DNA from: a virus
Virus record (IMG/VR): IMGVR_UViG_3300031726_000003
Location: 4,480 to 68,479 of that record
Direction: 5' to 3' (one strand)
Length of the DNA: 64,000 bases
Below the pieces are notes generated by a model. That model had not been told where the DNA came from. It made no database searches and saw only the letters and a list, made by a program, of their open reading frames with translations. This document shows positions 4,247 to 41,653 of the stretch, in pieces. How positions within the stretch are numbered: position 1 is the stretch's first letter; every line of letters starts with the position of its first letter. The position numbers and the translations under genes are program-made.

Positions 4247-6472
4247 ATGAAGCCGGTAGAGTTCTTCCCGTCTCGCTTCGCACGCCCACCGAAGCGGTTC
4301 CGTGTGGCAGTCATCGGTATGGCGCAGGCCATGAAGCACAGGCGCAGCCGCGCGAGCATAACGGCTGGGTGGACGGCGCTGATGCAGCGCGTACGAGCCA
4401 CGGTAAGAATATTCTATACACGCACCACAGGGCTGTGGATGGGGGCCACGCTGCGCGTGTCGCACAACGCTCCCGACACGTTTCTTCCCACGTCGCATTT
4501 TATCTACATAAAGAACCGCGTGTCGGTCCCGCGCAGCGTGTTCCTCCTGAACGAGCCGGACTTCACACACGACAGCGTCGGTACAATCGAGTACGCCAAT
4601 CTGGCGCGTAACGCATCTGTGCAGAGTTACAACCGCCCTCACAGCGGGGAAGAGGCGTGGTCGGTGTACTTCGACGCAGGTCTGGACGTGCTCAGCGACG
4701 TCGGCGGGAACTTCACTACCTTCACGTTGTATGCACTGGACGAGCAGATGCGAATTCCGGTGAAGGTGTACGGTACCCACGATGACTTGACCCAGCTCTC
4801 GACGGCGAGCGCAGCGGGTCTCGTCCCCGGCGTGCTGTGTTATAGCCTAGACCGGCGCGCTGTGGTTTTGATACACGTGAGCGACTCTATCGCCGACTTG
4901 ACCGGCGCTGTGTTTGCTGTGTTCATCGGCGGCACAGCCGGCGTGTTGTCGGAGTTCGACGGTACGACACCGTTGGAGGCGCCCTTAGTAAGGGTGTATA
5001 CATATGCCCATCCGGGTATGTTCTACGCAAGCACTACCATGCTCACCAAGATACACACCGGCACGACTGCCCTGATCGACGTGGAGTGGGCGTATATGAC
5101 GGGTCCAGCGGCGCCCTTCGAGTATACGCATGACTACGTAGTGGTGTCAGGTAAGACACAGACGGCGGACGTGGTGGGGGACCTGCAGATGTACGCGCTG
5201 TACAACACTCCCCCGTACCTCATGCGTACGTTCCCACTGGCTCACTACGCCCCGTCGACATATACGATAATGTCGTACATCGGGGGCACTGACAGCATAA
5301 ACCGGTTCTTGTCGTACTTCGCCCTCCTCCCTGACGGGAACTGGGAGCAGGGCACGATCCCATTCGGCGGGTCGGAGTTTCAGTATCCGGACGCAAACCT
5401 GCACGGGCTGTTCAGAAGCGTGGTGTACTTCACCGATAAAGGCGAGCGAGTGGTAGGTACGTCAGTGGGTGAATACATCTATGTGGAAATATCCGGTACA
5501 TGGGGGATATGGGGGCACTACGTTACATTCGGGGCCGCGTCATTCTACTGCGTAGACACAAGCTCCCCAGCTTCAGGGTTTGCCTCCGCCCCCACGCACT
5601 GTAACGACGGCTTGACTCGGGTGTTGTTCTGGGGGGCGGGGTTCACGTCCATTGATGAGATGATGGCGAACTTGCCCAACCCGAACCTGTACTACGCGGG
5701 ATACAGCACACTGTGGGAGATATGCGCAGAGACCGGTACCGCCACACGGCTGGAGGCAGCCGGAGGGCACCCCGGATGGATACGTTCAGAGGACTACCTC
5801 CACTGGTCCACCCTCTATGGGGGCTCCGGGCGGATAGGGCTGTATGCGTCCAGTGGAAGACACAGGGTGGTGGAGATACGGGTAGAATCGCCCGGCGTCA
5901 CGTTCTCCCGCCTGTACTACACGGACGACAGTGGGGGCTGGAAATTACTCGTAGAGGCGAACAGCTCGAATGTGTTGCTTACTGGGGAGGAGGTAGGGCA
6001 CGTATGCTCCACTGCATGCGACGTCATAGTAGCCGTTTCCGGTAGGGTGTTCGACTCCGCAACAGACCCGGCGGTGTTCTCGCTATACAGCACTCGCGAC
6101 GCAGTCTTGAAGGAGATATACAAGTTCACCCACCCATCCGGGATCACTACAGGGTCGTGGACGTTCGGCACCATGCGCGTAGACGACACCGGGGAGAATG
6201 TCTACCTGATGGCGTCATATGTGGAGGAGGTTGATTACTGGAACGTGACCCCTGCGGTTGTGGTGCGGATACTCCACATCGACATGAAGCATGCGAAGGT
6301 GTACGTGCCGTATGAAGAGCGGTTCGGAGATACCCCGGCAGCGGAGCAGATGCGGGGTATCTACCCAGCAGGGAATTATTTCGGATATACCACGCGGATG
6401 TGCTTTGACACACAGGGGTTCGTAAATACAAGCGGAAACTCGTTCTACCTCGTCGTGCGAGAAATCTATTAA
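4247..6472 (+). CDS. Large hypothetical beta-rich protein (741 aa), possibly virion-associated
   Basis: Long ORF from ATG 4247; aromatic/Gly/Thr-rich; no motif recognised. Confidence 0.7.
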   Translation: MKPVEFFPSRFARPPKRFRVAVIGMAQAMKHRRSRASITAGWTALMQRVRATVRIFYTRTTGLWMGATLRVSHNAPDTFLPTSHFIYIKNRVSVPRSVFLLNEPDFTHDSVGTIEYANLARNASVQSYNRPHSGEEAWSVYFDAGLDVLSDVGGNFTTFTLYALDEQMRIPVKVYGTHDDLTQLSTASAAGLVPGVLCYSLDRRAVVLIHVSDSIADLTGAVFAVFIGGTAGVLSEFDGTTPLEAPLVRVYTYAHPGMFYASTTMLTKIHTGTTALIDVEWAYMTGPAAPFEYTHDYVVVSGKTQTADVVGDLQMYALYNTPPYLMRTFPLAHYAPSTYTIMSYIGGTDSINRFLSYFALLPDGNWEQGTIPFGGSEFQYPDANLHGLFRSVVYFTDKGERVVGTSVGEYIYVEISGTWGIWGHYVTFGAASFYCVDTSSPASGFASAPTHCNDGLTRVLFWGAGFTSIDEMMANLPNPNLYYAGYSTLWEICAETGTATRLEAAGGHPGWIRSEDYLHWSTLYGGSGRIGLYASSGRHRVVEIRVESPGVTFSRLYYTDDSGGWKLLVEANSSNVLLTGEEVGHVCSTACDVIVAVSGRVFDSATDPAVFSLYSTRDAVLKEIYKFTHPSGITTGSWTFGTMRVDDTGENVYLMASYVEEVDYWNVTPAVVVRILHIDMKHAKVYVPYEERFGDTPAAEQMRGIYPAGNYFGYTTRMCFDTQGFVNTSGNSFYLVVREIY

Positions 6473-6536: not shown

Positions 6537-8705
6537 ATGCCAATAAATGATGATGTATCAACAGAGCAGTGGTATCGTTATCGCTGGATGGTGGAGCGCG
6601 GTCATTATCAGTTTCTTGAAAAAGCATACAAGTGTGATCAGTTCTTCGCAGGAGAGCAGTGGAACGAGACAGACATCAACGCGCTAAAATTGCAGAAGCG
6701 CCCGGCGATGACTATCAACAAGATCATCTCCACTGTAGGCACAATCATGGGGGAGCAGATTTACAACCGCAACGAGGTGCTGTTCAGGCCATCTAACGGC
6801 GCCACACCAGAAGTGGCAGAAGCTCTATCGAAGGTCTGGATGCAGGTCTCCCAGAACAACCAGCTCCCGTGGGTACGCTCAGATGTGTTCGCGGATGGCA
6901 TTATCCGTTCACGTGGTTTCTACGACGTACGCATGGACTTCAACGACGCCATGCAGGGCGAGGTCCGAATATCCCAGTTGAACAGCAAGAACGTAATCAT
7001 CGATCCAGACGCGGAGGAGTACGACCCCGACATGTGGAACGACGTGATCATCACCAAGTGGCTCACGGCTGATGACATCGAGGTACTGTACGACAAGGAA
7101 GACGCGGACTACTTTCGTACGAAGGTAGAGTCCTCGTTCCCATATTCATATGACTCCGTAGAACGCTACCGTGATCGCTTCGCCAGTCAGATGTTGGGCG
7201 GGGCGTACTACGGCATGCTTGATCGCACGTTCGTGCGCCGGTCAGTCCGCACGTTGGAGCGGCAGTATCGAAAGATGGACAAGCAGAACCACTTCGTCGA
7301 CATCGAGACTGGCGATATGCGCCCGGTGCCTGACGGTTGGGACAGGAACAAGATTTCCTCTGTGCTGGAGAAGGCGCAGGGCCAGCTCAACGTCATCAAG
7401 CGTACCGTCAAGCGAATCCGCTGGACAGTTACAGCAGACAATTTGGTCCTGCACGACGACTGGTCTCCATACAAGCACTTCACTGTAGTCCCATACTTCC
7501 CGCATTTCCGCTATGGCAAGACCATAGGCATCGTAGAGAATCTGCTTGGACCACAGGAAATCCTGAACAAGGTGTCCAGTCAAGAGCTTCATATTGTGAA
7601 CACAACGGCTAATTCCGGCTGGAAAGTCAGGGCAGGCGCGCTGCGTAACATGTCTATCGAGGATTTGGAGCAGAGCGGGGCGCAGACCGGGCTGGTGCTG
7701 GAACTCGACGACATCAACAACGCCGAGAAGATTCAGCCTAACCAGACTCCTACCGGGCTTGACCGTATCAGCTATAAGGCCGAAGAACACATCAAGTCTA
7801 TCTCTAACGTCAGTGATTCCATGCAGGGGTTCGACAGGGAGGACGTAGCTGCGAAGGCCATCGCCTACAAGCAGCAGCGCGGGTCTGTGAACCTGACCAA
7901 GGTCATGGACAACCTTGAGCGTTCCGATTGGATACTCGCACGTAATGTGCTCGACCTGATACAGGAGTATTACACGGAGCACCGCATCGTTACGATCACG
8001 CACGACGACGTGCTCAAGGAGCCAGAGACGATAGAGGTGAACAAGGCCGACCCCACTACAAGCGCAATAACCAACGACCTCACGTTGGGCGAGTACCAGA
8101 TCACCATCACCTCGCAACCATTCCGCGCGACGATGGAGGACAGCCAGTTCGAACAAGCACGCGCACTGAAAGAGATTGGCGTGGCTATCCCGGACAGCGT
8201 ACTTATCGAGGCCAGCCGCCTGCAGCGCAAGGGGGATATTCTCAAGCAGATGTCCGGCGACCAAGAGACTCCGGAGGCACAAGCGGCGAAAGCACTACAA
8301 CAGCGTCAAGCCGAGGCTGAGGTAGGCAAGCTGGAGGCGGAGGTTGCAGACAAGCATGCCGACGCCAGCCTGAAGACCGCGCGTGCGCAGAAAGAAGGAA
8401 TGGAGGCGCAGGGCGGGACGGGCGCCGAGATGGCTAAGATGGAGCGCGAGCACGAGATGGAGAAGGAGCGCACCGGCATGGAGATGGACATGAAGCGCGA
8501 GGAGATGGACATGAAGCGCGAGGAATTCCAGATGAAGCTGCAGTTCGAGCGTGAGAAGCATGAGCAGGACATGAAGATAAGGGCGGAGGAGGCAGCGCAG
8601 CAGGCCGAAGACAGGCGGCAGGACGCTATACTCAAACGCCAGCAGATGTTGCAGCAGCAAGAAGAGCAGGAAGATGAACCCACCTCACACGAAGGAGAAA
8701 TGTAA
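6537..8705 (+). CDS. Portal protein (P22 gp1-like) with C-terminal coiled-coil barrel
   Basis: FFAGEQW...RPAMTINKI N-terminal motif, HFTVVPYF, long E/K/M/Q-rich helical tail; position after terminase. Confidence 0.92.
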   Translation: MPINDDVSTEQWYRYRWMVERGHYQFLEKAYKCDQFFAGEQWNETDINALKLQKRPAMTINKIISTVGTIMGEQIYNRNEVLFRPSNGATPEVAEALSKVWMQVSQNNQLPWVRSDVFADGIIRSRGFYDVRMDFNDAMQGEVRISQLNSKNVIIDPDAEEYDPDMWNDVIITKWLTADDIEVLYDKEDADYFRTKVESSFPYSYDSVERYRDRFASQMLGGAYYGMLDRTFVRRSVRTLERQYRKMDKQNHFVDIETGDMRPVPDGWDRNKISSVLEKAQGQLNVIKRTVKRIRWTVTADNLVLHDDWSPYKHFTVVPYFPHFRYGKTIGIVENLLGPQEILNKVSSQELHIVNTTANSGWKVRAGALRNMSIEDLEQSGAQTGLVLELDDINNAEKIQPNQTPTGLDRISYKAEEHIKSISNVSDSMQGFDREDVAAKAIAYKQQRGSVNLTKVMDNLERSDWILARNVLDLIQEYYTEHRIVTITHDDVLKEPETIEVNKADPTTSAITNDLTLGEYQITITSQPFRATMEDSQFEQARALKEIGVAIPDSVLIEASRLQRKGDILKQMSGDQETPEAQAAKALQQRQAEAEVGKLEAEVADKHADASLKTARAQKEGMEAQGGTGAEMAKMEREHEMEKERTGMEMDMKREEMDMKREEFQMKLQFEREKHEQDMKIRAEEAAQQAEDRRQDAILKRQQMLQQQEEQEDEPTSHEGEM

Positions 8706-9655
8706 TGAAACTATTCCAACGGCTACTGAACTTCTACATCATGCGCGCCGTAGACGGCGATGATGGCGGAGCTGTAGATCGCGGCGATGCTGTAGTCGCC
8801 GGTGAAGTTGAAGCACCCGCCGAGGCAGAAGCAGCGGCGGAAGAAGCGCCGGAGGAGAGCGTTGACGAACAACCACGCGGCGAGGACGGCAAGTTCGCCA
8901 AGAAGGACGGTCCTATCAGTATTCCAAAGGCTGAATTTGACCGCCGTATAGAGCAGTCGCGCTTGGCGAAGGAGGCGGCAGAAGCACGTGCTGCCGATCT
9001 GGAGCGACAGATTCAGCAACAGACACAGAACGCGGACATCAAGGCGTTGAAAGAGCAGCGAGCTGTCATCAGTGAGAAGCTGGAGACTGCCCGCATGGAG
9101 GGCGACAAGGATCGCGCACTGGAGCTTGGGCGTCAGGTAGAGGCGATCACAGAGCAGATCGAGGACGTGAAGCTGGCGAACAACACCGATAGAATCCGCG
9201 CCGAAGCCCGTGAAGAAGTGCGCATGGACCTGACTATTGAGCGGCTCGAGGCGGCGTATGACATTCTACGTCCAGACTCAGAAACGTTCGATCAGGATGT
9301 GGTTGACATGGTATTGGCTACTCAGCGCGACCTTATGGCGCGCGAGCGTCTACCAGCCAGCCGCGCGTTGGAGACTGCGGTGACGAAGGTGATGTCGAAG
9401 GTCATGCCTGCGGCTACCGACGACACGAAGTCTACCGGCCTGTCTGCGGCGAAAGGCTCAGACCGAGCCAAGCAGCAGGTAGCAAAGAATCTGGACACGA
9501 CGAAACGCCAGCCCGCCAGCATGAAAGAGGTGGGTGAGGACAGCGACACCAGAGGTCAGCGCGCTGCTGATCCCGACGTGGCGGACATGTCCTTCGAGGA
9601 GTTCTCGGCGTTGCCGGATGCAACGAAAGCCCGCTTGCGCGGTGACTCAATTTAG
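8705..9655 (+). CDS. Capsid scaffolding protein
   Basis: Acidic coiled-coil with RGEDGKFAK motif; between portal and capsid. Confidence 0.8.
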   Translation: MKLFQRLLNFYIMRAVDGDDGGAVDRGDAVVAGEVEAPAEAEAAAEEAPEESVDEQPRGEDGKFAKKDGPISIPKAEFDRRIEQSRLAKEAAEARAADLERQIQQQTQNADIKALKEQRAVISEKLETARMEGDKDRALELGRQVEAITEQIEDVKLANNTDRIRAEAREEVRMDLTIERLEAAYDILRPDSETFDQDVVDMVLATQRDLMARERLPASRALETAVTKVMSKVMPAATDDTKSTGLSAAKGSDRAKQQVAKNLDTTKRQPASMKEVGEDSDTRGQRAADPDVADMSFEEFSALPDATKARLRGDSI

Positions 9656-9664
9656 GAGACTGAT

Positions 9665-9718
9665 ATGGCATGTAAACCAAAGAAGTCCGGCGGTAAAAAG
9701 CCACCCAAGAAATGTTGA
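9665..9718 (+). CDS. 17-aa basic micro-ORF MACKPKKSGGKKPPKKC
   Basis: AGGAG RBS a few nt upstream of ATG 9665; TGA at 9716-9718. Confidence 0.5.
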   Translation: MACKPKKSGGKKPPKKC

Positions 9719-9744
9719 CACTGTTGTCCAATCTGATGTACTCT
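9715..9744 (+). promoter_or_regulatory. Putative sigma70 promoter for the capsid operon
   Basis: Consensus TTGACA (9715-9720), 18 nt, TACTCT (9739-9744). Confidence 0.6.
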
Positions 9745-9746
9745 CT

Positions 9747-9929
9747 GACGTAACAAAGCGTCTGCCGGGTACGCAAAATACCCGGCACTTCGTATGACGG
9801 CGACGATACAGCGTCATGTAGTGCTTCGTAAGTACGCGACGACACAGCGTTCCGGCTCCACCTCCGTAAAGGTTGAACTCTCGCGCACCGCAGCGACACC
9901 GTGGTCTGAAACCTGACACAGTCTGTCAG
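9747..9929 (+). ncRNA. Structured 5' leader of the capsid gene (series of hairpins with recurring loops)
   Basis: Inverted repeats at 9763-9787, 9794-9817, 9821-9835, 9834-9850, 9860-9873, 9887-9905 and 9913-9929. Confidence 0.6.
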
Positions 9930-9965
9930 CACAAGCGTTTAACTTTTTCAACAAAGGAGAGCCAA

Positions 9966-11126
9966 ATGGCACTTACTAATTTTGCGTTGCTCACCAACGA
10001 GCAAAAGACTGTATGGTCGCTGGACTTGTGGAAACAAGCCCGTAACCTGTCGTTCATTAACAAGTTCTTGGGGCGTGATTCCAACGCTCTTATCCAACAC
10101 GTAACCGAGCTGAAGAAGACTGAAAAGGGCGCACGCGCCGTTATCACTCTGCTGACCGACGTCGAAGGCGACGGTATTGCCGGGGATCGTACTCTGGAGG
10201 GCAACGAAGAAGCTCTGAAGAGCTTCGACACCGTGATCCGTCTGGACCAACTGCGTCACGCGCATCGTCACGAAGGCCGTATGGCAGACCAAAAGTCTAT
10301 CATCAACTTCCGTGAAAACGCCCGCGACCAGTTAGCTTATTGGCTTTCTGATCGTCTGGACCAACTGGCGTTCCTGTCTCTGGCAGGCATCGCTTATTCG
10401 TTCAAGAACGCTGGCGGCACCCGCATCGGTTCTGACCTTCCGTTCCTTGAGTTTGCCGCTGACGTAGTGGCTCCTACCTCCAAGCGTTATGGCCGTTGGG
10501 ATGCTACCAACAAGCGCATGGTATGGGGCGGTGCATCCAGCACAATCTCCGGTAACCATTACTCCACTGGCGCGTATATCGCGACCAACGGCGGAGACAC
10601 TGCCGCTGACTATCCCACATGGAACATGCTCGTAGCTGCCAAGGCGTACGCCAAGGACAATTACATCCGTGGTATCCGTGAAGATGGCGGCGAAGAAACT
10701 TACCACGTGTTCCTGTCCCCACAAGCGATGTCTCGCCTGAAGATGGACACTGACTACATGGCTAACTTGCGGTACTCCTCTAGCAAGGACGTCAACAGCA
10801 AGCTGTTCAGCGGGTCTACGGTAAAGGTCGACGGTCTGTATCTGCATGAGTTCCGTCATGTGCCTAACACACGCCTTGCAGCCGGCGGGTCCAAGTATGG
10901 CGCTGGTAACATCGACGGTTGTCAGGTTTTGTTCTGCGGTGCTCAAGCATTGGGTATGGCAGACATTGGCGCACCAGAATGGGTCGAGAAGGGCTTCGAC
11001 TACGAGAACCAACAAGGTATCTCGACTGGCAAGATCATCGGCTTCAAGAAGCCGCAGTTCTACACCCAGTATTCCGGCGGCACTACCGAAGACTTCGGTG
11101 TGCTTTCTATTTACACCGCGCAATAA
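9966..11126 (+). CDS. Major capsid protein (DUF4043 / N4-gp56-like)
   Basis: MALTNFALL start with AAGGAG RBS; ELKKTEKGARAVITL, LEGNEEAL, DQLRHA and C-terminal EDFGVL motifs. Confidence 0.92.
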   Translation: MALTNFALLTNEQKTVWSLDLWKQARNLSFINKFLGRDSNALIQHVTELKKTEKGARAVITLLTDVEGDGIAGDRTLEGNEEALKSFDTVIRLDQLRHAHRHEGRMADQKSIINFRENARDQLAYWLSDRLDQLAFLSLAGIAYSFKNAGGTRIGSDLPFLEFAADVVAPTSKRYGRWDATNKRMVWGGASSTISGNHYSTGAYIATNGGDTAADYPTWNMLVAAKAYAKDNYIRGIREDGGEETYHVFLSPQAMSRLKMDTDYMANLRYSSSKDVNSKLFSGSTVKVDGLYLHEFRHVPNTRLAAGGSKYGAGNIDGCQVLFCGAQALGMADIGAPEWVEKGFDYENQQGISTGKIIGFKKPQFYTQYSGGTTEDFGVLSIYTAQ

Positions 11127-11138
11127 GGAGGCCGGATC

Positions 11139-11669
11139 ATGGCTAAGAAACTTGCTGTTCGTGGAACTCAGTACCCTGTAACTGCTGAGTTCATCTTCAA
11201 CTACAACGACTGGGTGACTGATTCAGGTTCCGGGGTGAAATACACCTTCGGCGCTGCAGTCACAAACACCGGTACCGCAACTGCTGTAGACCCCGGCACT
11301 GGTATTGTAGAACCCGGCCTGACATCCGGTACAGGGCTGACATTTGACTGTATCCCTATGCCGCTGGGCGCTTACATCACTGGAGCGGAGGTCAACGTCG
11401 AAACCGCGTACGTCGGTATCGGTGCTGGCGCCACCCTGTCTCTGGGCATCGCTGGCTCCACCACTGCGCTGGTCAACGCTGCTGACTTGGATGCTGCTGC
11501 CGCTGGTGCGAAACTCACCATCGCTACGTTCACTCCTACGCTGAGCAATTCCGGTCAGAATATCCGCCTGACTTTGGCCGGGCTGACTGCTGCTGCTTCC
11601 GCTGGTAGGGTTCGCGTACGCGTGAACTACACTATCGACGGTAAGGTCAACGAGGTGTCGGCAGTTTAA
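11139..11669 (+). CDS. Capsid decoration / minor capsid protein
   Basis: Beta-rich Ala/Gly/Thr protein right after the capsid gene, strong RBS, upstream of the terminator. Confidence 0.7.
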   Translation: MAKKLAVRGTQYPVTAEFIFNYNDWVTDSGSGVKYTFGAAVTNTGTATAVDPGTGIVEPGLTSGTGLTFDCIPMPLGAYITGAEVNVETAYVGIGAGATLSLGIAGSTTALVNAADLDAAAAGAKLTIATFTPTLSNSGQNIRLTLAGLTAAASAGRVRVRVNYTIDGKVNEVSAV

Positions 11670-11684
11670 GAAGTGATAAGGGCT

Positions 11685-11711
11685 AGGGGGGCATATCGCC
11701 CCCCTTTTTTT
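11685..11711 (+). terminator. Rho-independent terminator
   Basis: GGGGGGC-ATATC-GCCCCCC followed by a T7 run. Confidence 0.88.
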
Positions 11712-11728
11712 AAGTAGAGGAGATAAAC

Positions 11729-33349: not shown

Positions 33350-36300
33350 ATGGCTGGTTTAGCTGACGCGCTCTACGCACAGGCCGGGTATAACAATCCC
33401 CCCGCAGGAGGTGACGTCTTATATGCCCCGCAGCAGTCTGTTCCTACGCCGGAGATGATGCAGCAGTTCTCTCCGGGGAACTCATTCACACAAGGGCTTG
33501 CGCGCGGTGGTCGAGGGCTGCGGGGGCAGATTGGCGCGCTGGTAGGCACAGGCGCTGAAGCGATGGGGTTCCCGAGCGTAGCGCAGGGAGGATACGACCT
33601 AGCTGCGGATATGGCGCACCAGAACGCGGATGCTGCGCAGACAGACGCGATCCCGACGTGGAAGAACGTGCATGATCTGAAGGGGCTGTCGCAGTTCACT
33701 CTGGGCAGCGTAGGGGCAGGACTTCCGTACATCGCCCCTGCCGTGCTCGGCCCGATGGGTGCACGTATAGCAGGCGCAGGACTTGAAGGACAGATCGCCG
33801 CTGGTACTGCGGCCAATGCATTACCGTTCGCTGGCAGTGCTGCTGAGCGGCTGCATGATGATCCAGCTACAGCCTCCATGCCGGCCAGCCATCGGCTAGG
33901 TATCGCAGGGACAGAAGGGCTGGCAGGCGCAGGGCTATACGCCATCCCCGGCGCACTCATGGGCGAGCGGGCTGTCGGCGCCGCTGGCATGGCTGCGAAA
34001 CCTACACTCAACCCGCTCAAATCCGCCGCCGGTATGGCCGGCGACACCGCTGCGTTCATGGGCGGCATGGGCGCTGCTGGTGCCGCCACAGGTCAGCTTG
34101 GGCGCACAGTGCAGAGGCAGTACGACCCGACATACCTAGAAGGGCAAGACCCGGAGCTGATGAAAGAGGAGTTTGCCGGTAGTGCTGCTGGTATGCTGCC
34201 GTTCGCCATTCCGCATGCCATCTCCGCTCACACCGCTGGTGCGGCACGTCAGCCGATCCGTGAGTTCGTGAGCGCGGGCGTGAAAAACGTGGGGCGCAAG
34301 ATATATGACTCCATGCCTGATATGGCGCAGAGCGCACTCGACGTTTTGGTCGCTACAGGCAAGACCACTTCTGATGGGGCCAGACTGCTCAGTGAGTTCA
34401 AGGAGCATATCAAAGGCAAGGCGCGTACTGCACTCGATGCGTACGAGGACAGCCTGAACACCGCGCGTACAGACAACTTCATCACCGGCGAAGAAGGCGG
34501 CGTCAACGACCACCTCGGCGCTGCCGCAGATGCTGTGAAGGCGGCGCTTCCGACAGAGGATGAGGCGGCTGCAACAGGGTTGGCGGCTGGACGCGCGGTA
34601 CGCAAGGCTGCGGTTGACACATGGGGCACGATACGCAAGGCGGTGTTCGGCGAGGGCGTGCCTGAAGCCACCCCGATGAACATCAAGCGCGTGCATGCAC
34701 GCATCGCTTCGCTGGAGAACGTCTCTGCTGAAGAAGCCCCCGGCGTGTACTCGAAGCTGGTGGAAAGCCTTGGCGACCACGACTCTCCGGCTGCTGACCG
34801 CATACGCACGCTCGCGCAGAAGCGGCTAAATGACGGCAAGTTATCCGACGAAGAGGTGTATGGAATGTCGAACGACATTCTGGAGGTCGCCGCTGCCAGA
34901 CGCGCTATACAGCAGGCACGTGACATCGCATCATCCAAGCCGGATGCAACTGTAGACGAAGAGGGACCAGCGTCTGAGTCGTCCAATTCCATACCGAATA
35001 AACTGTTTCGCGATTCGTTCGCGAAGTGGGGCGTCGACCCTGCGCTGACTAGTGAGCTAGGCAAGTACGTAAATCCGACCACCGTGCATAAATACGGCAT
35101 TACTGACCTGAACAGGCAGCTAGTGGCGAAAGCCGCAGAGTTGACCGGCGGCGATGAAGGCCATATGACGGCGGTAACGAAGGCAGTCGAGAGCATGACA
35201 TCGGAACTGCAGTCGTACCGCAAAGAGGCGCACCCCGATCTGCCGGATGATCCAATGAAGGTGATGCGTGGTATTGAGTCTGCAGCACGCACGATGGTGA
35301 ACGCCAGTGACCGCCCTGAGGCACGCGACCCATCTACTGCGAGGGCTGCCGCTGACACCATGATGGAGATCGTGAATGCGGCTGCGCAAGGGCGGGACGT
35401 GCACTATGGCGACGGGAAGACGCGCTCGTGGCGCGCATCTGTCGGCAAGTTGACTGACTGGCTGCATGGCGAGTATGGGCAAGCCGGAGCGGAATTCGTG
35501 CAGAACGTACTCGCGCACGCACGTGAGGCATACGGCGAAAACAGCAAGGTAGTCGGCAGGCTAAAGCTGTTGAACGACACCTCTACTCAGTACGAGTCGT
35601 CCCTGCGTGATTTCGGAGAGCAGTTAAACCGCAAGTACGCAGACCAGAAGGTCAATGTGCGTAACGTGATGAAGCGAATGCTGGGCGATCTACGCACCAC
35701 CCGCGACATGGCTGAGCCGTCTACGCTCGCACAGCACAAGGCCACGCTGGACTCAAACATAAAACAGACACGCGCTGCAATCGATTCGATGGAGAACAGC
35801 GGCACTATCGACCCGCGAGTGCAGAAGGACATCGACGCGAAATATGCCGAACTACACAGCTATCTGCGTCAGGCCGATGAACTGGCAGAACAGCGCACAT
35901 CGCCCGCGAAAGACCCGCAGATGGAGCTGCGTCGCCGATGGCTCGGTGAGTTCAAGAACGACAAGGCATATCAGCGCGCGCTGGCTGCGGTGCAGCGCTA
36001 CGAGCGTAGTGGAGCTGACGCCGTACCGAAGAAAGAACTCGGTGGGGCACCTACTAGAGCCGCGACGAACGCCGAGGGTGACACAGGCAATCACAACTAT
36101 TCTGCTGAGCAGAGTACGACGGAGGGTGCCGAACATCTAGAGGAGGATCAGAAGAAGCTCGTCGCACAGGCTGCGAACGAGAAAGGCACCAACGACACAT
36201 TCACTCCGTCACAGAACGTGGGATACCACGGTGTAGAGACCATGCGCGGGCTGCGCGTAGAGGGTAATGATGTACCCACGCCGATCTCCCGCAAGCAGTC

Positions 36301-39300
36301 CGCCGACTTTGAAAAAGGCGGCATGAGGAACAAGACGTACGAGCAGATGCATGCTCTGCATGGGTTCCATACTGCGAGCGAGTGGCGCAACATGAAGAAC
36401 TGGGCTGAAGAGCGGAGCGCCTCCACTGGCGAATCTGTGAACAGCTTGCTGAACACCGCGATGGAGAAGGTTATCGCGCACGATGAAGAGCGGCTACAGA
36501 CTCTGGAGAAGCGTAACGCATCGAACGTGGCATCTGAAGATATTGCGTTTCTCCACGCTCGCCGGGAGATGTACGACGACCTGAAGAAGCGTGGCAATGA
36601 TGCTGGCGGGACGTTCTCCCCCGGTAAACTGTTCTTCGAGGATAAGATCAACCGGCACTACGGCTTGTACCGCATGGAGGGGGACGAGGGTACTGAATTA
36701 CACTTCACCCCCGAATCGCTGCAACGCTTTGCCCCCAAAGAAGGTGTGCTCGGCCCCGAGTCCCCAGATAAATACGCCAACAAGCTGATGGAGCGATTCA
36801 AAGGCGTGAAGATGGCCCCGGAGAAGCGCGGTGAGCTGATCGATAATATCAAACAATCGCTGCTCCCGTTACGGTTTGAGGACGGCAAGACCACACAGTT
36901 GGACATCGGACGCCTTGTGGAGAACGTCCTTGAGCGTCATTGGGTACAGCAGGGTAAGATCATAGGCGTGAAGGAGCGCGAAGGCGCGCTTGAGCATGAT
37001 CGTACCGGCGTGCCAAAGCAGAGATATACGTCGGAGGAAGTCCTTCGGGCGTTCTATGAGGTAGTCAATACCATCAAGCTGACGAAGGGTGTGGACAACG
37101 AGAGTGCATTCGGTGAGGGCAAGCCCCTTGAAGGACAGCGGTTGGTGAAGGCAACTCGCACCGGGGCCGCGTTGTTCACGAAGAAAGACACGGCGCGCAC
37201 TATACGTGAGTTCGATCCGAAGCTGGTTATCTATCGTAGCAAGCCTACAGTGGTCGATGGGAATGTAACGCAGCGCGTAGTTCGCGCTGGCGACGTGGTA
37301 AGTTTCCTCGGTAAGGACTCTTCTGGCAACGCTATGTACAGCCGGAAAAATATCGACCTGAACAAGGTGCTCGTCGACAGGAAGAAAGAGACGTTCTCCG
37401 AGTCGCGTATAACCAAGAGCACTGGGTATTCTAAGGACGGCACGTTCATCGGAGTAGGTAAGCCGGACGAACATGCTGCCGTTACTCCGAATACTCACGC
37501 CATCGAGGCGGCTAAAAAAGGAGTGTTGCGCGACTTCACCGCTGGCAAAGATTTAGACTTGCGAGCGGCGCTGAACGAATCGGCAGATATGCACGGCATA
37601 TCACGCAGTGACATACCAGACATGGACGAGGCGCACGTCGCCGCGTTGATTCGCGACGTGCTTATCAACGTGGCTGACACGGGGCACAAGCACGACCTTA
37701 TGGCCGACGACATTGGCAAGCTGCTCGCAGGTACAAAGTTCCCTCGTGGCGACCCGCGCAAAGCGTGGCAGGATGCGGTTGTGTATACGCGCGAGCTGGC
37801 CGACGGGACGAAGTTTGACGTGACGCTGATGGCACTCCTTAAAAAGGCTGACTACGGCGATAGTATGCCGCGCCATAGCATAGAAGCAGCAAAGGCGTTC
37901 CATCTACGTAGCCAGATTGATCGCATACTTCGCCGTATCGATACTCCTGAGAACGACGAAGGACCGGTAGGGCACGATGTTGAGAAGGTGAAAGCCGACA
38001 TAGCTACTACGAACTCGGAGATTGCCCGGCTCACTGAGCAGCGTAAGACCGCGCCTACCAACGCAGCTCAGATCGGCATACCATCGCGGAAACGGGCAGA
38101 ATCCAGAGAGCAGATAGATGAGAAGTTAGCGGGGCTGAAGGCGGACAAGACCAGACTCGAAGGTATCCGCTTCAGCTCTGGCAAGGACGTGGAGGATAAT
38201 ACCGTGCTGGGCCGGTTGCAGTCGCGGTTAGACCGGGAGACTGGTAATCGAGAGGAATCTGTAAATACAGCCGCGCTGAAGAACGGAATGGACGAGCTGT
38301 ACAACTTCATGACTGGCAGCGCGATGCGCGACGCGAAGGACAGCGACGGCAACTACGTGTTGGCCGATCTTCACGATGTGTTGGGCACTGGCAACGAGGT
38401 GCCGAAGATGGGGGCTGCAGAAGCCAAACGCGCACTCGGCGCAGGGGAGAAGTATGCTGGGGTGGATAAGACCGGGCCGAAAATGGCGGACGTTAAAGAT
38501 TCCGGCAAGATTGGCCCTGCAACGGACTGGACCTCGCCGGAGAATCTGCGCAAGCTGTCTACCGGGCTGCGCGCTGTAGAGGATGCATTCAAAGCCGCCC
38601 CAGAAGCGAAGATGACCAGCGAGACACTGAGCACTGTACAACCAGTGCGCGGGCCAAAGGGGTCTACCACCGGCATGATGGAACAGCGCAGAGCGAATAT
38701 TGCCAGCGCTGCCGCCAAGCAGAAACAGAAAGAGGTTGCACGTCTGCAGCGCATGGCGCGGGGCGAGATCACACAGACACAGAGTGGGTTCCGTAGCCGC
38801 AACAACAAGGTCGGCCCCGCGTCGAAAGAAGCCGCTGCCAGATTAGCGAAGGCTACGGAGGTAATGAATAATCCGAGGGACTTGAGCGAGCCAGTGCCAC
38901 AGGCTGTAGAGCATGCGGCTGATGCGTCATTTGTCGAAAAGGAACGCGAGAGTACCGCCACAGGCTATAAACAGCCGGGTGTGCTGCACGTGAGTGAGAG
39001 CAACTTCTTGGCCCATCTTGACCAATACACTCCGGAGCAGGCGGCTAACTGGATCGCATCCAACTCACCACGTAGCCAGACGGACAAGATGGTACTCAAG
39101 GACTATGTTAACTCTATCCTTGACGAGATTCATAGCCGCGATCCAGAGAAGGCGGTCAAGGCGTCATACGAGCTGGTTGATACAGGCGGGTGGAAAGAGC
39201 CTGTCTCCAAGGCGGATGATGCGCCGTTCTCCGAGTCGTCGCGCAAGACAAAGCCGCTCACCAACGAGGAGAAGATTGCGCAGCTAGAGAAGGACTTGAC

Positions 39301-41653
39301 TGAGGGGCTGTCCAAGATATTCCCGAAGGAGATCATGAAGGGCGTGAAGCTGGTAGACAAGATCGAAGGCAACGACAAAGCCATTGGCAAACTGGTTGAT
39401 CAGATCGCGCAGATTCACATAGGCGCGATGGATAAAGGCGAGGTGCGGTGGCATGAAGGCTGGCATGGGCTTGAGCAGTTTCTGAAGAAGCAGATAGGTG
39501 GTACGGAGATTCTCGCCACTGTGTACAAGCACGTCGGCAGTGAGCGCATGTCGCAATGGTTTGCTGAACAGTATGCGAATGACCCCGGCGCGTTGAAGCA
39601 GATGGATAAGCTAGGCGATAGTGAGAAGGCGGCGTTCGCGTTCCAGAAGATTATGGAGGGCGCAACCCTGCCGGGGTCGCCGGTGGTGCGTGGGTTCTGG
39701 AACACGATCAAGTCGTGGATACAGAAGCTTGGCAACCTCATCGGTATAGGCAACGAGGGTAAGCACACCCAAGCGTTCTTTGACTATGTGAAGAACAGTA
39801 ATCTGTTGCGCGACCATGACAACCCCGACGCGATGCTTAATGCGCTTCATCGGACAACAATGGACGAATTCGCCAGCGATGTGCGTTCGTTCACAGAACC
39901 GCTGCATGGTGGGTTAAGTGCGCTGCTGGGGCATTCGTCCAACCGCATGCACGACACGGGTATAGCCGCGTACCAGACGATTGCAAACCTGTATGCAGGA
40001 GAGTCCGGCAAGGGCGGGTACATATCCAAGCAAAACGCTGCGATCAACCGATTCGGCAATGAACTTGACCGCATAGCAGAGCTGGAAGATAAGGGCGTAC
40101 AGGGCGCTCGCATTCGTGACCTACAGGGCAAGCTGAGTGGTTACCTGAACAAGGCCGGGTTCACCAACGGCGAGATAAACCGTATGTACGACGGTATCCT
40201 CGCGTTCGACCAAGAGAAGATAAATTCCGGCATCAAGGAGTTCATGACCGACGTGGTGAATCACGCTGGTACATCAGGCAAGAATGGGGCTGAGCTTCGC
40301 GTTATCGCACAGAATATCGCTGACACCGGTTTCTTCTACGACCCGATGATCGGGCGCGAGCTGTTCAAAGACCCGAAGGTGGCGGCGAAGTGGACAGTAA
40401 CAGACCCTACCGAGCGTATGGCGCGCATGATCTATCAAGGCACCCGCATGGCTGAACGCCGCCGTGCTTTCGGGGCGAACGACGAGAATCTGAAGCTCCT
40501 AGTTGAGGCCGGCGACGCAGAGGCTACCCCAGAGCAGCGGCTGTTCGCGGAGCAGTTCGTTGCCAGCTACGAAGGGAAACTCGGCAACGGCACGATGTCT
40601 CCTGCAGCGCGCAAGATGATGGGCGTACTCATCACAGCAAACAACATCCGCATGTTGCCTATGGCTGTGTTTTCACAGTTGCTCGAGCCTATGCAGCTTG
40701 CGTTTCGTAAGAACAGTTTTAGCGGTACATTCGACGCCATGTGGCGTGGTATATCTGACATGCCCCGCAGCTTTGACTCTATCAATAAACGCTACAAGGA
40801 CGATCCTTCAGGATACCGTGACTACTGGGAGAGAATCTCGGCAGAGATGGGCACCATCGGGTCTGACATAGTAGGCAGTGCGGTTGCGAACATGACCAAC
40901 GGCATGAACCTTCACGGTATGACGAAGCGCATCAACAACATGTTCTTCAAGTACAACCTGATGGAGCAGTGGAACAGGTCAATGCATGTGGCAGCTACAA
41001 AGATGGCCGTGGAGTTCCTGCGCGATCACAGCACGTTACCAGATGGAGCGCAGAGCGAGCGGTTTCTGAAAGAGTTGGGGCTGACGCCGGAGGACATCAA
41101 GTTCGACGGCGAGGATCGTATAATCGTGAACTCGAAAATCGAGGATGCGGTAAACCAGTTCGTTAACGAAGCGATGGCCCACCCTGATGCTGGCTCGAAC
41201 CCTATATGGATGAACGACCCTCGCTTCGCATTGTTGGCGCAGATGAAGCGGTTTACATTCGCTCATTCCCGCTACGTGCTCGAGCGCGGTATTCGCGAGT
41301 TCAAACTGGGCAACAAGTTTGTCATGGCTCCCGCTATACTGTCGGTACCGTGGATGATGACTGCTGACAGTATCCGCGATATGGTTAATCCGACGAGTGA
41401 CCGCAGCTACATGAAGAACTGGACATACACCGATCACGTGATACACGGCATCGAGCGTACAGGCAGCTTCGGACGCTGGTCATTCCCGCTGGACGTAGAG
41501 AAGAGTATCAGCGCCGGCGGCAGTGGTATGGAGGGGCTGCTCGGGCCAACTGCCGAGCTGTTCTCGCGCGTAGGGCGTGGCGCGCATGAGGGAAACATGA
41601 TGGACGCGATGCTGGGCAACCTGCCCGGTGCACCTTTACTGATGCCTGACTAG
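33350..41653 (+). CDS. Giant internal virion / ejection protein (2767 aa) with HExxH motif
   Basis: Ala/Gly-rich N-terminus, WHEGWHG near 39449-39469, helical C-terminal region. Confidence 0.75.
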   Translation: MAGLADALYAQAGYNNPPAGGDVLYAPQQSVPTPEMMQQFSPGNSFTQGLARGGRGLRGQIGALVGTGAEAMGFPSVAQGGYDLAADMAHQNADAAQTDAIPTWKNVHDLKGLSQFTLGSVGAGLPYIAPAVLGPMGARIAGAGLEGQIAAGTAANALPFAGSAAERLHDDPATASMPASHRLGIAGTEGLAGAGLYAIPGALMGERAVGAAGMAAKPTLNPLKSAAGMAGDTAAFMGGMGAAGAATGQLGRTVQRQYDPTYLEGQDPELMKEEFAGSAAGMLPFAIPHAISAHTAGAARQPIREFVSAGVKNVGRKIYDSMPDMAQSALDVLVATGKTTSDGARLLSEFKEHIKGKARTALDAYEDSLNTARTDNFITGEEGGVNDHLGAAADAVKAALPTEDEAAATGLAAGRAVRKAAVDTWGTIRKAVFGEGVPEATPMNIKRVHARIASLENVSAEEAPGVYSKLVESLGDHDSPAADRIRTLAQKRLNDGKLSDEEVYGMSNDILEVAAARRAIQQARDIASSKPDATVDEEGPASESSNSIPNKLFRDSFAKWGVDPALTSELGKYVNPTTVHKYGITDLNRQLVAKAAELTGGDEGHMTAVTKAVESMTSELQSYRKEAHPDLPDDPMKVMRGIESAARTMVNASDRPEARDPSTARAAADTMMEIVNAAAQGRDVHYGDGKTRSWRASVGKLTDWLHGEYGQAGAEFVQNVLAHAREAYGENSKVVGRLKLLNDTSTQYESSLRDFGEQLNRKYADQKVNVRNVMKRMLGDLRTTRDMAEPSTLAQHKATLDSNIKQTRAAIDSMENSGTIDPRVQKDIDAKYAELHSYLRQADELAEQRTSPAKDPQMELRRRWLGEFKNDKAYQRALAAVQRYERSGADAVPKKELGGAPTRAATNAEGDTGNHNYSAEQSTTEGAEHLEEDQKKLVAQAANEKGTNDTFTPSQNVGYHGVETMRGLRVEGNDVPTPISRKQSADFEKGGMRNKTYEQMHALHGFHTASEWRNMKNWAEERSASTGESVNSLLNTAMEKVIAHDEERLQTLEKRNASNVASEDIAFLHARREMYDDLKKRGNDAGGTFSPGKLFFEDKINRHYGLYRMEGDEGTELHFTPESLQRFAPKEGVLGPESPDKYANKLMERFKGVKMAPEKRGELIDNIKQSLLPLRFEDGKTTQLDIGRLVENVLERHWVQQGKIIGVKEREGALEHDRTGVPKQRYTSEEVLRAFYEVVNTIKLTKGVDNESAFGEGKPLEGQRLVKATRTGAALFTKKDTARTIREFDPKLVIYRSKPTVVDGNVTQRVVRAGDVVSFLGKDSSGNAMYSRKNIDLNKVLVDRKKETFSESRITKSTGYSKDGTFIGVGKPDEHAAVTPNTHAIEAAKKGVLRDFTAGKDLDLRAALNESADMHGISRSDIPDMDEAHVAALIRDVLINVADTGHKHDLMADDIGKLLAGTKFPRGDPRKAWQDAVVYTRELADGTKFDVTLMALLKKADYGDSMPRHSIEAAKAFHLRSQIDRILRRIDTPENDEGPVGHDVEKVKADIATTNSEIARLTEQRKTAPTNAAQIGIPSRKRAESREQIDEKLAGLKADKTRLEGIRFSSGKDVEDNTVLGRLQSRLDRETGNREESVNTAALKNGMDELYNFMTGSAMRDAKDSDGNYVLADLHDVLGTGNEVPKMGAAEAKRALGAGEKYAGVDKTGPKMADVKDSGKIGPATDWTSPENLRKLSTGLRAVEDAFKAAPEAKMTSETLSTVQPVRGPKGSTTGMMEQRRANIASAAAKQKQKEVARLQRMARGEITQTQSGFRSRNNKVGPASKEAAARLAKATEVMNNPRDLSEPVPQAVEHAADASFVEKERESTATGYKQPGVLHVSESNFLAHLDQYTPEQAANWIASNSPRSQTDKMVLKDYVNSILDEIHSRDPEKAVKASYELVDTGGWKEPVSKADDAPFSESSRKTKPLTNEEKIAQLEKDLTEGLSKIFPKEIMKGVKLVDKIEGNDKAIGKLVDQIAQIHIGAMDKGEVRWHEGWHGLEQFLKKQIGGTEILATVYKHVGSERMSQWFAEQYANDPGALKQMDKLGDSEKAAFAFQKIMEGATLPGSPVVRGFWNTIKSWIQKLGNLIGIGNEGKHTQAFFDYVKNSNLLRDHDNPDAMLNALHRTTMDEFASDVRSFTEPLHGGLSALLGHSSNRMHDTGIAAYQTIANLYAGESGKGGYISKQNAAINRFGNELDRIAELEDKGVQGARIRDLQGKLSGYLNKAGFTNGEINRMYDGILAFDQEKINSGIKEFMTDVVNHAGTSGKNGAELRVIAQNIADTGFFYDPMIGRELFKDPKVAAKWTVTDPTERMARMIYQGTRMAERRRAFGANDENLKLLVEAGDAEATPEQRLFAEQFVASYEGKLGNGTMSPAARKMMGVLITANNIRMLPMAVFSQLLEPMQLAFRKNSFSGTFDAMWRGISDMPRSFDSINKRYKDDPSGYRDYWERISAEMGTIGSDIVGSAVANMTNGMNLHGMTKRINNMFFKYNLMEQWNRSMHVAATKMAVEFLRDHSTLPDGAQSERFLKELGLTPEDIKFDGEDRIIVNSKIEDAVNQFVNEAMAHPDAGSNPIWMNDPRFALLAQMKRFTFAHSRYVLERGIREFKLGNKFVMAPAILSVPWMMTADSIRDMVNPTSDRSYMKNWTYTDHVIHGIERTGSFGRWSFPLDVEKSISAGGSGMEGLLGPTAELFSRVGRGAHEGNMMDAMLGNLPGAPLLMPD

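Follow-up and report, generated by a model that had tools for sequence, protein, structure and literature searches.

The question raised by this locus is why about 215 nt of non-coding sequence, rich in potential hairpins, should lie between a promoter and the ribosome-binding site of a phage major capsid gene. The locus is contained in a 64,000-nucleotide stretch of viral DNA (positions 4,480 to 68,479 of IMG/VR record IMGVR_UViG_3300031726_000003), which as a whole we refer to as the window and whose numbering is used throughout; positions 9748-9965 are the 5' leader of the capsid mRNA. An initial annotation, made from the letters alone, had described this leader as three repeated two-hairpin units with alternating loop motifs, forming a possibly undescribed cis-regulatory RNA for capsid output or antitermination, and had proposed an Rfam search and a covariance model built from the leaders of related phages as checks. 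Our analysis indicates that the leader holds a conserved folded RNA, shared by many related uncultured phages, and that this RNA probably controls the making of the capsid protein. We tentatively interpret it as a pseudoknot-gated, cis-acting translational switch for the capsid gene, a reading to which comparison of the sequences leads us to assign a probability of about 45%.

The evidence beyond chance is comparative, and the window alone proves nothing. Folding from the window's own sequence was weak (minimum free energy (MFE) of -69.9 kcal/mol, z = -1.88, equalled by 9 of 200 shuffled sequences), and hairpins with RCGAYA loops were not enriched across the window, with 21 on both strands against a shuffle mean of 20.5. 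We examined the regions upstream of related capsid genes, taking 80 of 365 matches among viral contigs, 80 of 343 among metagenome contigs and 12 bacterial-genome loci; none of the relatives retrieved was closer than 77% at the protein level, and the viral and metagenome contigs came from many environments. A non-coding gap of 140-460 nt precedes the capsid gene in most of the 77 loci with a callable open reading frame (ORF) upstream; inspection of these leaders revealed differing stems with the same loops. A blastn search of the window's leader against 50,697 phage records returned matches inside the capsid coding sequence only, in six KPP25-like records.

A covariance model of three hairpins built from ten relatives, with the window left out (R1), matched the window at 9823-9906 on the plus strand (33.4 bits, E 5.9e-6) and recognized 62 loci in a non-redundant set of 100. 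These 62 served to build a second model (R2), which matched the same positions with 49.3 bits (E 1.5e-7), and found one match each in 75 of the 100 non-redundant loci encoding a related capsid (1.1 Mb searched). The covariance models proposed in the initial annotation thus recognize the leader, and they place its conserved core, comprising three hairpins (hpA, hpB and hpC) with their 5' flanks, at 9823-9906. Both strand and position are conserved. All 74 capsid-oriented loci match R2 on the plus strand, and L141, an unoriented locus obtained from a pattern scan, matches on the minus strand. Among the 62 R1 loci, the distance from the end of the core to the capsid start is 29-85 nt in 60, and 583 nt (L228) and 596 nt (L213) in the other two. 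It is the single significant copy in the 68.5-kb phage genome. Across relatives the cores range from 0.43 to 0.71 in G+C, with loop and flank sequences identical throughout.

The stems of the core covary. In the R2 alignment of 74 distinct sequences, 86.9% of cells were paired compared with 69.2% in shuffles, double-change cells numbered 357 compared with 119, and the covariation score was 0.476 compared with at most 0.100 when partners were slid by one to three columns (all counts uncorrected for phylogeny). Double changes were found at five of five pairs in hpA, four of five in hpB and five of six in hpC, the last with 92.6% of cells paired, and an alignment-free hairpin search gave the same picture. 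The loops are near-invariant (RCGAYA, YCCGUAA and AGCGACA), so that the suggestion that stems vary while loops recur is borne out in the relatives. On this comparative evidence the leader hairpins are real and do not reflect chance. Since G.U pairs work on the plus strand only and the matches are strand-specific, the conserved entity is a plus-strand RNA, as the initial annotation had supposed. One could instead suppose that the stretch acts as DNA (as an operator, or in packaging or replication), that it encodes a small protein or that its hairpins arose by chance, because the TCGC...GCGA motifs are palindromic as DNA and because ORFs of 40 aa (plus strand) and 90 aa (minus strand) overlap the leader. 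We regard these explanations as scarcely credible given that stems covary with pairing kept, that G.U pairs fit one strand, that matches are strand-specific in 1.1 Mb and the element is kept in 75 of 100 loci, and that relatives differ by indels of any length with no ORF conserved.

Within the window, hairpins are present as first described at 9763-9787, 9794-9817, 9834-9850, 9860-9873, 9887-9905 and 9913-9929. A further hairpin claimed at 9821-9835 (loop TCGTA) is weak, having 4 bp with a G.U pair, overlapping the next stem and lacking homologue support; a better assignment for its UCGU is as 5' pairing partner of the loop that follows. The 5'-proximal hairpin (9763-9787, plus strand) has a 9-bp stem and the loop CGCAAAA. 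Strong hairpins occupy the equivalent position in four group-1 relatives (L009, L010, L021 and L039) with unrelated loops, and of the proposed CGYAA class of loops only the CCGTAA of hpB is conserved. The hairpin at 9794-9817 has a 6-bp stem and the loop GCGACGATACAG. It forms part of a stretch (9788-9817) that is a lineage-specific additional copy of the hpA-type unit, such upstream units being present in 7 of 11 group-1 loci; model R1 matched 9731-9816 only weakly (E 0.36). The repetition noted in the leader is real. A 27-nt direct repeat (9788-9814 and 9824-9850) is 81% identical with a 36-nt period, and an 18-nt sequence occurs in three copies (9799-9816, 9835-9852 and 9889-9906). These units are 72-81% alike and their stems differ. 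The scheme of alternating two-hairpin units was not upheld, the conserved arrangement being hpA-hpB-hpC. Downstream of the core, hpD (9913-9929, plus strand) has a 6-bp stem and the loop CAGUC; on reading of group-1 relatives, without a formal count, its stems differ (GAACC/GGUUC, UGAAGC/GCUUCA and CAGGCG/CGCCUG, among others) and an RCAGU loop is conserved.

A feature absent from the initial annotation is that each loop of the core can pair with a short stretch on the 5' side of its own stem. A near-invariant CG dinucleotide lies 2-5 nt upstream of each stem, and the possible loop-to-flank helices, which we term PK-A, PK-B and PK-C, are UCGY with RCGA, (C)CGG with CCG, and UCGC with GCGA, respectively. 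On the plus strand of the window, unit A (9826-9850) combines the flank UCGU (9826-9829) with the 4-bp stem of hpA (9834-9837/9847-9850), whose loop GACGACACA includes ACGA at 9839-9842. Unit B (9852-9875) combines the linker CCGG (9852-9855) with the 4-bp stem of hpB (9860-9863/9870-9873) and the loop CCGUAA (9864-9869), in which CCG at 9864-9866 is complementary to CGG at 9853-9855. Unit C (9881-9905) combines the flank UCGC (9881-9884) with the 5-bp stem of hpC (9887-9891/9901-9905, one G.U), whose loop AGCGACACC carries the complementary GCGA at 9893-9896. In the additional upstream unit, the flank UCGU (9790-9793) precedes the stem 9794-9799/9812-9817, and the loop GCGACGAUACAG contains ACGA at 9803-9806.

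The central C-G and G-C pairs of these helices never vary and so are uninformative, and the evidence for pseudoknots comes from the edge pairs. The edge pair of PK-C (164-176) is CG in 65 sequences, AU in 2, UG in 2, GC in 1, UA in 1 and other in 3; the first pair of PK-B (105-122) is CG in 68, GC in 1, UA in 1 and other in 3. PK-A was tallied alignment-free, because its flank aligns badly, over the 54 loops that hold CGA. Fourteen ACGA loops were accompanied by a CGU flank only in 11 cases, by CGC only in 2 and by both in 1, and the 40 GCGA loops by CGC only in 29, by CGU only in 3 (G.U allowed) and by both in 8, an association of flank with loop for which the Fisher test gave p 2.4e-6 without correction for phylogeny. 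Pairing appears to occur within a unit and not across units, because the additional upstream unit and unit A of the window have U:A and unit C has C:G, and the reverse holds in L033 and L049 (C:G in A, A:U in C). Pairing of a loop outside its own hairpin, with covariation in support, is the hallmark of an H-type pseudoknot, and compensatory edge changes are seen in all three units; spacer and loop lengths appear to fit classical H-type geometry. We therefore read the core, from sequence comparison, as three tandem mini H-type pseudoknots, which in this phage are apparently joined by an extra upstream copy of the first unit.

How such a core could act on the capsid gene is suggested by two further features that the initial annotation did not contain, a long-range helix and a relation between an anti-Shine-Dalgarno (anti-SD) sequence and the ribosome-binding site. 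The translation initiation region (9939-9968, plus strand) comprises the U-rich UUAACUUU (9939-9946), which we presume to resemble the T7 gene 10 enhancer, the Shine-Dalgarno (SD) sequence AAGGAG (9954-9959) and the ATG at 9966. The anti-SD CCUCC (9861-9865, plus strand) lies inside hpB. MFE folding predicts a long-range helix P1 on the plus strand between 9868-9878 and 9937-9947 (11 bp, two G.U), which would share nucleotides with the hpB 3' strand and contain hpC and hpD between its strands, together with an alternative fold over 9854-9963 in which GGCUC (9854-9858) pairs with GAGCC (9959-9963) and CCU (9861-9863) with AGG (9955-9957). The window's own MFE structure is this SD-sequestering fold, in which the nucleotides used for PK-B and hpB in the other conformation cover the SD and spacer.

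Under the proposed switch, two mutually exclusive folds would compete. In the pseudoknot fold, hpB, PK-B and PK-C would form, the anti-SD would be locked away and the capsid SD would be free. In the extended fold, P1 would form by pairing of the hpB 3' strand and the following spacer with the segment before the ribosome-binding site, and the linker-B/hpB-5' segment with its CCUCC would then pair with the SD and spacer, leaving the SD buried. The element would be a cis-acting translational switch or gate because the pseudoknots would free the ribosome-binding site and their absence would bury it. We infer that both folds form in vivo and that their balance sets translation, with a phage or host protein, a small ligand or ion, or co-transcriptional kinetics as candidate triggers.

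Support for this mechanism was sought among the relatives. Within group 1, the core helix of P1 was paired in 86.3% of cells across ten loci, with double changes at three pairs; a C-G pair is replaced by U-A in the window, and an A-U pair changes via G.U to G-C in L265. The P1 sequences of other groups, by reading, are quite different, and hpD and the ribosome-binding region, which make up the variable 3' part of the leader, were aligned by MAFFT too inconsistently for pair counts. Because these 3' regions do not align, we compared, for 60 loci, duplex energies within a locus with those across loci whose cores were less than 80% alike, without correction for relatedness. Pairing of the linker-B/hpB-5' segment with the translation initiation region ranked at or below 0.05 within its own locus in 14 of 60 loci, where 3 were expected, with a mean difference of -2.1 kcal/mol; the P1 strands did so in 15 of 60, with a mean of -2.65 kcal/mol. 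Four control region pairs reached this rank in 4, 5, 5 and 1 of the 60. The unpaired probability of the SD in a nested ensemble averaged 0.15, compared with 0.29 when the upstream sequence was shuffled, and 30 of the 60 loci had an SD accessibility no higher than the 10th percentile of their shuffles, likewise uncorrected for relatedness. The features of an SD-sequestering switch, an anti-SD and an exclusive alternative pairing, are thus predicted across the family and in the MFE fold of the window, although the window's own statistics do not stand out from controls.

Several points weigh against the gate, some of them from the window itself. There, the pairing of the linker-B/hpB-5' segment with the translation initiation region ranked at 0.10, and the SD accessibility of 0.19 was not distinct from the 0.15 obtained in shuffles. 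The pseudoknot helices have 2-4 bp at mostly invariant positions, with one variable pair per unit as their support; the third pair of PK-B (107-120: GC 30, AU 7, GU 4, other 33) fails in 33 of 74 sequences, and 2 of the 14 ACGA loops of PK-A have the wrong flank. Two alignments (A5 and A6) were fitted to the hairpins of the model, which favours structure, and the pair counts lack a phylogenetic correction. Group-3 relatives are without a long P1 and have complementarity between hpC and the translation initiation region instead, and more distant relatives seem, by reading, to keep hpA- and hpC-type units without hpB, so that an anti-SD gate may not be the ancestral function. The cores of L213 and L228 lie about 590 nt away from the capsid start, and the core has therefore been kept in these loci without an adjacent capsid ribosome-binding site. 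Finally, a purely structural switch leaves the identical CG-centred sequences of every unit unexplained.

Some of these observations would be expected of a passive expression module, the simplest alternative, in which a compact pseudoknotted 5' domain shields a very highly expressed late mRNA from 5'-end-dependent decay (RNase E entry or scanning), or serves as a ribosome standby or enhancer platform, without regulated switching and with the complementarity to the ribosome-binding region being incidental or tuning output. The unchanged SD accessibility of the window and the retention of cores separated from the capsid start in L213 and L228 are consistent with such a role, as are the U-rich stretch and strong SD downstream of the core, the location of the group-3 element at or near the inferred transcript 5' end and the extra 5' hairpins of other groups. 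We nevertheless consider it rather unlikely, since invariant loops and flank-loop covariation are needless for stabilizing hairpins, P1 and the complementarity to the ribosome-binding region are better within than across loci, and burial of the SD beyond shuffled controls in 30 of 60 loci is unexpected if high expression were the sole role.

The identity of loops and flanks across phages, together with the presence of two to four units per leader, suggests that more than stability is at stake, either recognition by some conserved factor or the demands of a tertiary fold. One possibility is that each UCGY/RCGAYA unit binds one trans factor, the leader being a multi-site platform or decoy with secondary effects on translation; the factor might be a phage late protein (feedback by capsid or scaffold), a host protein that is conserved, or a toxin of abortive infection that binds RNA and is soaked up by the abundant leader. 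Repeated units with identical loops and free stems resemble sponge or operator arrays, the loops are invariant despite the wide range of G+C, and the core persists uncoupled from the capsid start in L213 and L228. Further encouragement comes from matches to the Rfam abiF motif (RF03085) directly 5' of the core in L004 (2805-2841, 45 bits), L005 (2419-2455, 45 bits) and L006 (2805-2841, 49.6 bits), all above the gathering score of 37; abiF motifs are described in bioRxiv 10.1101/2025.04.15.648962 as neutralizing the AbiF abortive-infection toxin by direct binding. The motif, a 37-nt hairpin with a conserved AAGCCUCUCAACGAUGCUCA interior recognized at 37 bits or more, was not matched in the window. 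A diverged look-alike below the threshold was seen in L007. A phage-borne abiF copy could be a counter-defence decoy.

We judge the platform unlikely. An element acting in cis is indicated by the tight spacing to the capsid start (60 of 62 loci) and by a complementarity to the ribosome-binding region that is specific to each locus, and the Y:R covariation implies that conserved nucleotides pair mutually and are not all free for a protein. Nor was a bacterial counterpart of the motif found outside the prophage of a host-type genome or in 150 further genomes of its class (stricter filters, 30 candidates each). The micro-peptide that the initial annotation had offered as a partner does not serve as a general one. 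In the window, a 16-codon ORF (9667-9717, plus strand) is preceded by a strong SD, and its Lys/Gly/Pro-rich product has KKC as its last residues. Of 72 loci with the RNA, about 9 have a comparable Gly/Lys-rich micro-ORF, with GGKKC or GKGKK at its end, and 15 have a basic micro-ORF of any kind. In L004, L071, L076 and L077, short dissimilar ORFs upstream of the capsid promoter are preceded by AAGGAGGTGATCC, which we take to match the 3' end of 16S rRNA as its full complement. On a more speculative and still less probable view, each UCGY/RCGAYA mini-pseudoknot might be an aptamer for one conserved trans factor (an ion or small molecule, a component common to all hosts, or a defence toxin that binds RNA). 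The leader would then be a sensor of a new class, with three to four cooperating sites, by which capsid synthesis is timed or licensed. The abiF motif in L004-L006 would then suggest that the capsid leaders of this clade are a general platform for protein-binding or anti-defence RNAs.

The Rfam search proposed at the outset (Rfam 15, 4227 models, positions 9000-10600, both strands, E of 10 or less) gave no match to the leader and two chance-level matches outside it (E 4.3 and 4.7), and a scan of 49 homologous loci found nothing on the core, with abiF alone beside it in three loci. Full-text literature searches found no description of the element, so that the view of an undescribed cis-regulatory RNA holds in outline; overlap is possible with unnamed candidates of a 2023 study of viral contigs, which reports 10,006 candidates for viral RNAs and places five of these ahead of a major capsid protein of type PHA00201 (PMC10690425), the capsid here belonging to PF13252. 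The element appears to act like known SD-sequestering leaders and pseudoknot operators while belonging to no family tested, and would represent a new family within a general kind of RNA that is already known.

Its nearest analogues each share part of this design. The T4 gene 32 leader (also mentioned in PMC10690425) has an H-type pseudoknot in a phage mRNA 5' leader, upstream of a U/A-rich stretch and ribosome-binding site, that controls translation; it is however a single pseudoknot of unrelated sequence which nucleates binding of its own single-stranded-DNA-binding product, whereas here the capsid gene is preceded by mini-pseudoknots in tandem, three to four in number, that have a CG core in common. 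The guanidine-II (mini-ykkC) riboswitch resembles the leader in its small repeated hairpins with conserved N-C-G-R loops, its two-pair CG:CG contact and the anti-SD versus anti-anti-SD logic of SD-sequestering platforms. Its two ACGR tetraloops kiss, whereas here a hexaloop-or-larger RCGAYA pairs with its own 5' flank in three units; the loops have 6-12 nt, and Rfam returned no mini-ykkC or other riboswitch match. In phage Mu, Com opens a late-gene (mom) ribosome-binding site buried in a stem by occupying an upstream structured site, with the differences that Mu relies on a single hairpin together with a zinc-finger protein dedicated to it and that the sequences are unrelated. Type III antitoxin RNAs such as ToxI, and likewise abiF, offer tandem structured units of about 36 nt that bind protein and, in ToxI, are pseudoknotted. 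Type III arrays (ToxI, AntiQ) consist of near-identical repeats beside the gene of the toxin that cleaves them, whereas the units here are 72-81% alike with differing stems, and their neighbours are scaffold-like and capsid genes, with no adjacent toxin gene and no Rfam match.

The transcriptional setting of the leader also bears on its function. The 310-nt gap between the upstream ORF and the capsid start holds the 16-codon ORF, a promoter and the leader of about 215 nt. The sigma-70-type promoter (9715-9744, plus strand) consists of TTGACA (9715-9720), a 16-nt spacer, TG (9734-9735) and TGTACT (9737-9742), with TACTCT (9739-9744, plus strand) as an alternative -10, and transcription would start at about 9748-9750. 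A layout TTGMMN-N16/17-(TGn)TAnnnT is common to relatives, which makes the promoter-to-ribosome-binding-site arrangement of the initial annotation plausible, even though a simple consensus scan gave this promoter no score. Between the -35 and -10, a TCTGA motif repeated about 10 nt apart is conserved in most relatives, possibly as the site of a regulator. An RNA library yielded a contig of 230 nt, 100% identical to 9811-10040, that spans leader and coding sequence and lends weak support to transcription, the library possibly containing DNA and contigs being no proof of RNA. Short contigs were what we recovered from the libraries, and uncovered parts and depths were not interpreted; their runs are labelled peat metagenomes, and we make no habitat claim beyond that label.

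Downstream, the major capsid gene (9966-11126, plus strand; phrog_334, PF13252) is followed by an ORF of 176 aa without a family match (11139-11669, plus strand) and by a strong intrinsic terminator (11685-11705, plus strand) with an 8-bp G+C-rich stem and a following U run. Because this terminator follows the second ORF, the leader heads a two-gene transcription unit (9966-11712, plus strand). About 33 kb of same-strand structural genes lie beyond the terminator, and this, with the position of conserved stem-loops just downstream of a promoter, invites comparison with the promoter-proximal stem-loops of HK022 put and lambda or P22 nut, which modify RNA polymerase for processive antitermination and would here allow late read-through. 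Such a role, offered as one option by the initial annotation, is in our view very improbable. The interval between promoter and capsid gene contains no terminator; reading of 9748-9965, without a formal scan, revealed neither a boxA-like sequence nor a GNRA-like pentaloop boxB, the loops having 6-12 nt; loops and architecture differ from put and nut; and a polymerase-modifying element would need neither the conserved spacing to the capsid start nor the complementarity to its ribosome-binding region.

The record from which the window is taken has 68,479 bases and is rated 100% complete. PHROG and Pfam matches indicate a podophage-like gene layout, with plus-strand structural genes up to about 44.7 kb and replication genes on the minus strand. 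Among cultured phages, Pseudomonas phage KPP25 and its kin come closest (capsid identity 60%), and from its sequence we assign the phage to the podophages as distant kin of KPP25. Upstream of the leader, the portal gene (6537-8705) is followed by an ORF of 316 aa in the scaffold position (8705-9655) that is without a family match. A plus-strand ORF of 2767 aa (33350-41653) has 420 C-terminal residues that match the virion structural family phrog_30152, the remainder being without a match. ARAGORN found no tRNA and no tmRNA in the window. A likeness to these molecules had been considered since linker-B and hpB resemble a T arm in some relatives, and it was abandoned because this segment varies between groups.

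The limits of the family were examined at both the phage and the host level. The leader of KPP25 (L001) and that of Aeromonas phage phiA008 (L280) gave no significant R2 match (best scores 8.5 and 8.0 bits), the match within the phiA008 leader (1401-1471) scoring 5.9 bits (E 1.9). By eye, the phiA008 leader, whose capsid is 41% identical, has a UUCGCA flank, a hairpin with the loop AGCGUAGAC and an hpB-like hairpin, which we regard as a lead only. A second candidate copy in the window (33970-34055, minus strand) reached E 0.06 with R1, had no R2 match at E of 0.01 or less and was rejected. A scan of viral contigs for CCGT..TTCGC..AGCGACA returned 117 stretches; R1 confirmed 3 of the 80 listed, two of which were already in the set, and this pattern was too loose to be informative on the motif in other contexts. 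In L213 an HNH-type ORF of 181 aa (937-1482) is inserted between core and capsid gene, the 3' part of the leader being replaced and the core kept. L228 likewise has a nuclease ORF between the leader core and the capsid gene, and MW202615 (L281) has an annotated endonuclease gene (552-1082) before the capsid, with a weak core match (13.2 bits, E 0.066). Many group-2 leaders (L011, L012, L015, L017, L043, L059, L071 and others) contain a further conserved hairpin 5' of the core with a stem like UGACAG/CUGUCA and the loop CGGAUUGUAG, for which Rfam gave no match; its GGAUU or GGUU is complementary to AAUCC or AACC just upstream, a candidate pseudoknot with covariation.

Among bacterial genomes, the core is present in 4 of 11 loci. 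One of these, in the cultured betaproteobacterium Uliginosibacterium gangwonense DSM 18521 (L285, 1354-1447; NZ_KB892865.1), scored 64.8 bits beside a capsid of 68% identity; it lies inside a 261-kb scaffold, is probably a prophage, and holds the one core copy of the 5.0-Mb genome, located at the prophage capsid. A search of 150 other genomes of the same class found no core, under stricter filters and with scoring limited to 30 candidates in each. The existence of this cultured carrier makes the function of the leader directly testable.

Capsid genes are the most heavily expressed genes of phages. To our knowledge, few structured cis-regulatory RNAs have been described in tailed phages, and almost none for capsid genes. 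Here we describe a widespread element with a regular architecture, apparently of three to four tandem mini-pseudoknots built on one shared CG-centred pairing and coupled to the capsid ribosome-binding site. If factor binding is confirmed, the leader would define a new RNA-protein or RNA-ligand pair. If the proposed switch is correct, it would show how a phage that depends on host RNA polymerase and has a sigma-70-type promoter ahead of its capsid gene controls the timing or amount of capsid synthesis post-transcriptionally.

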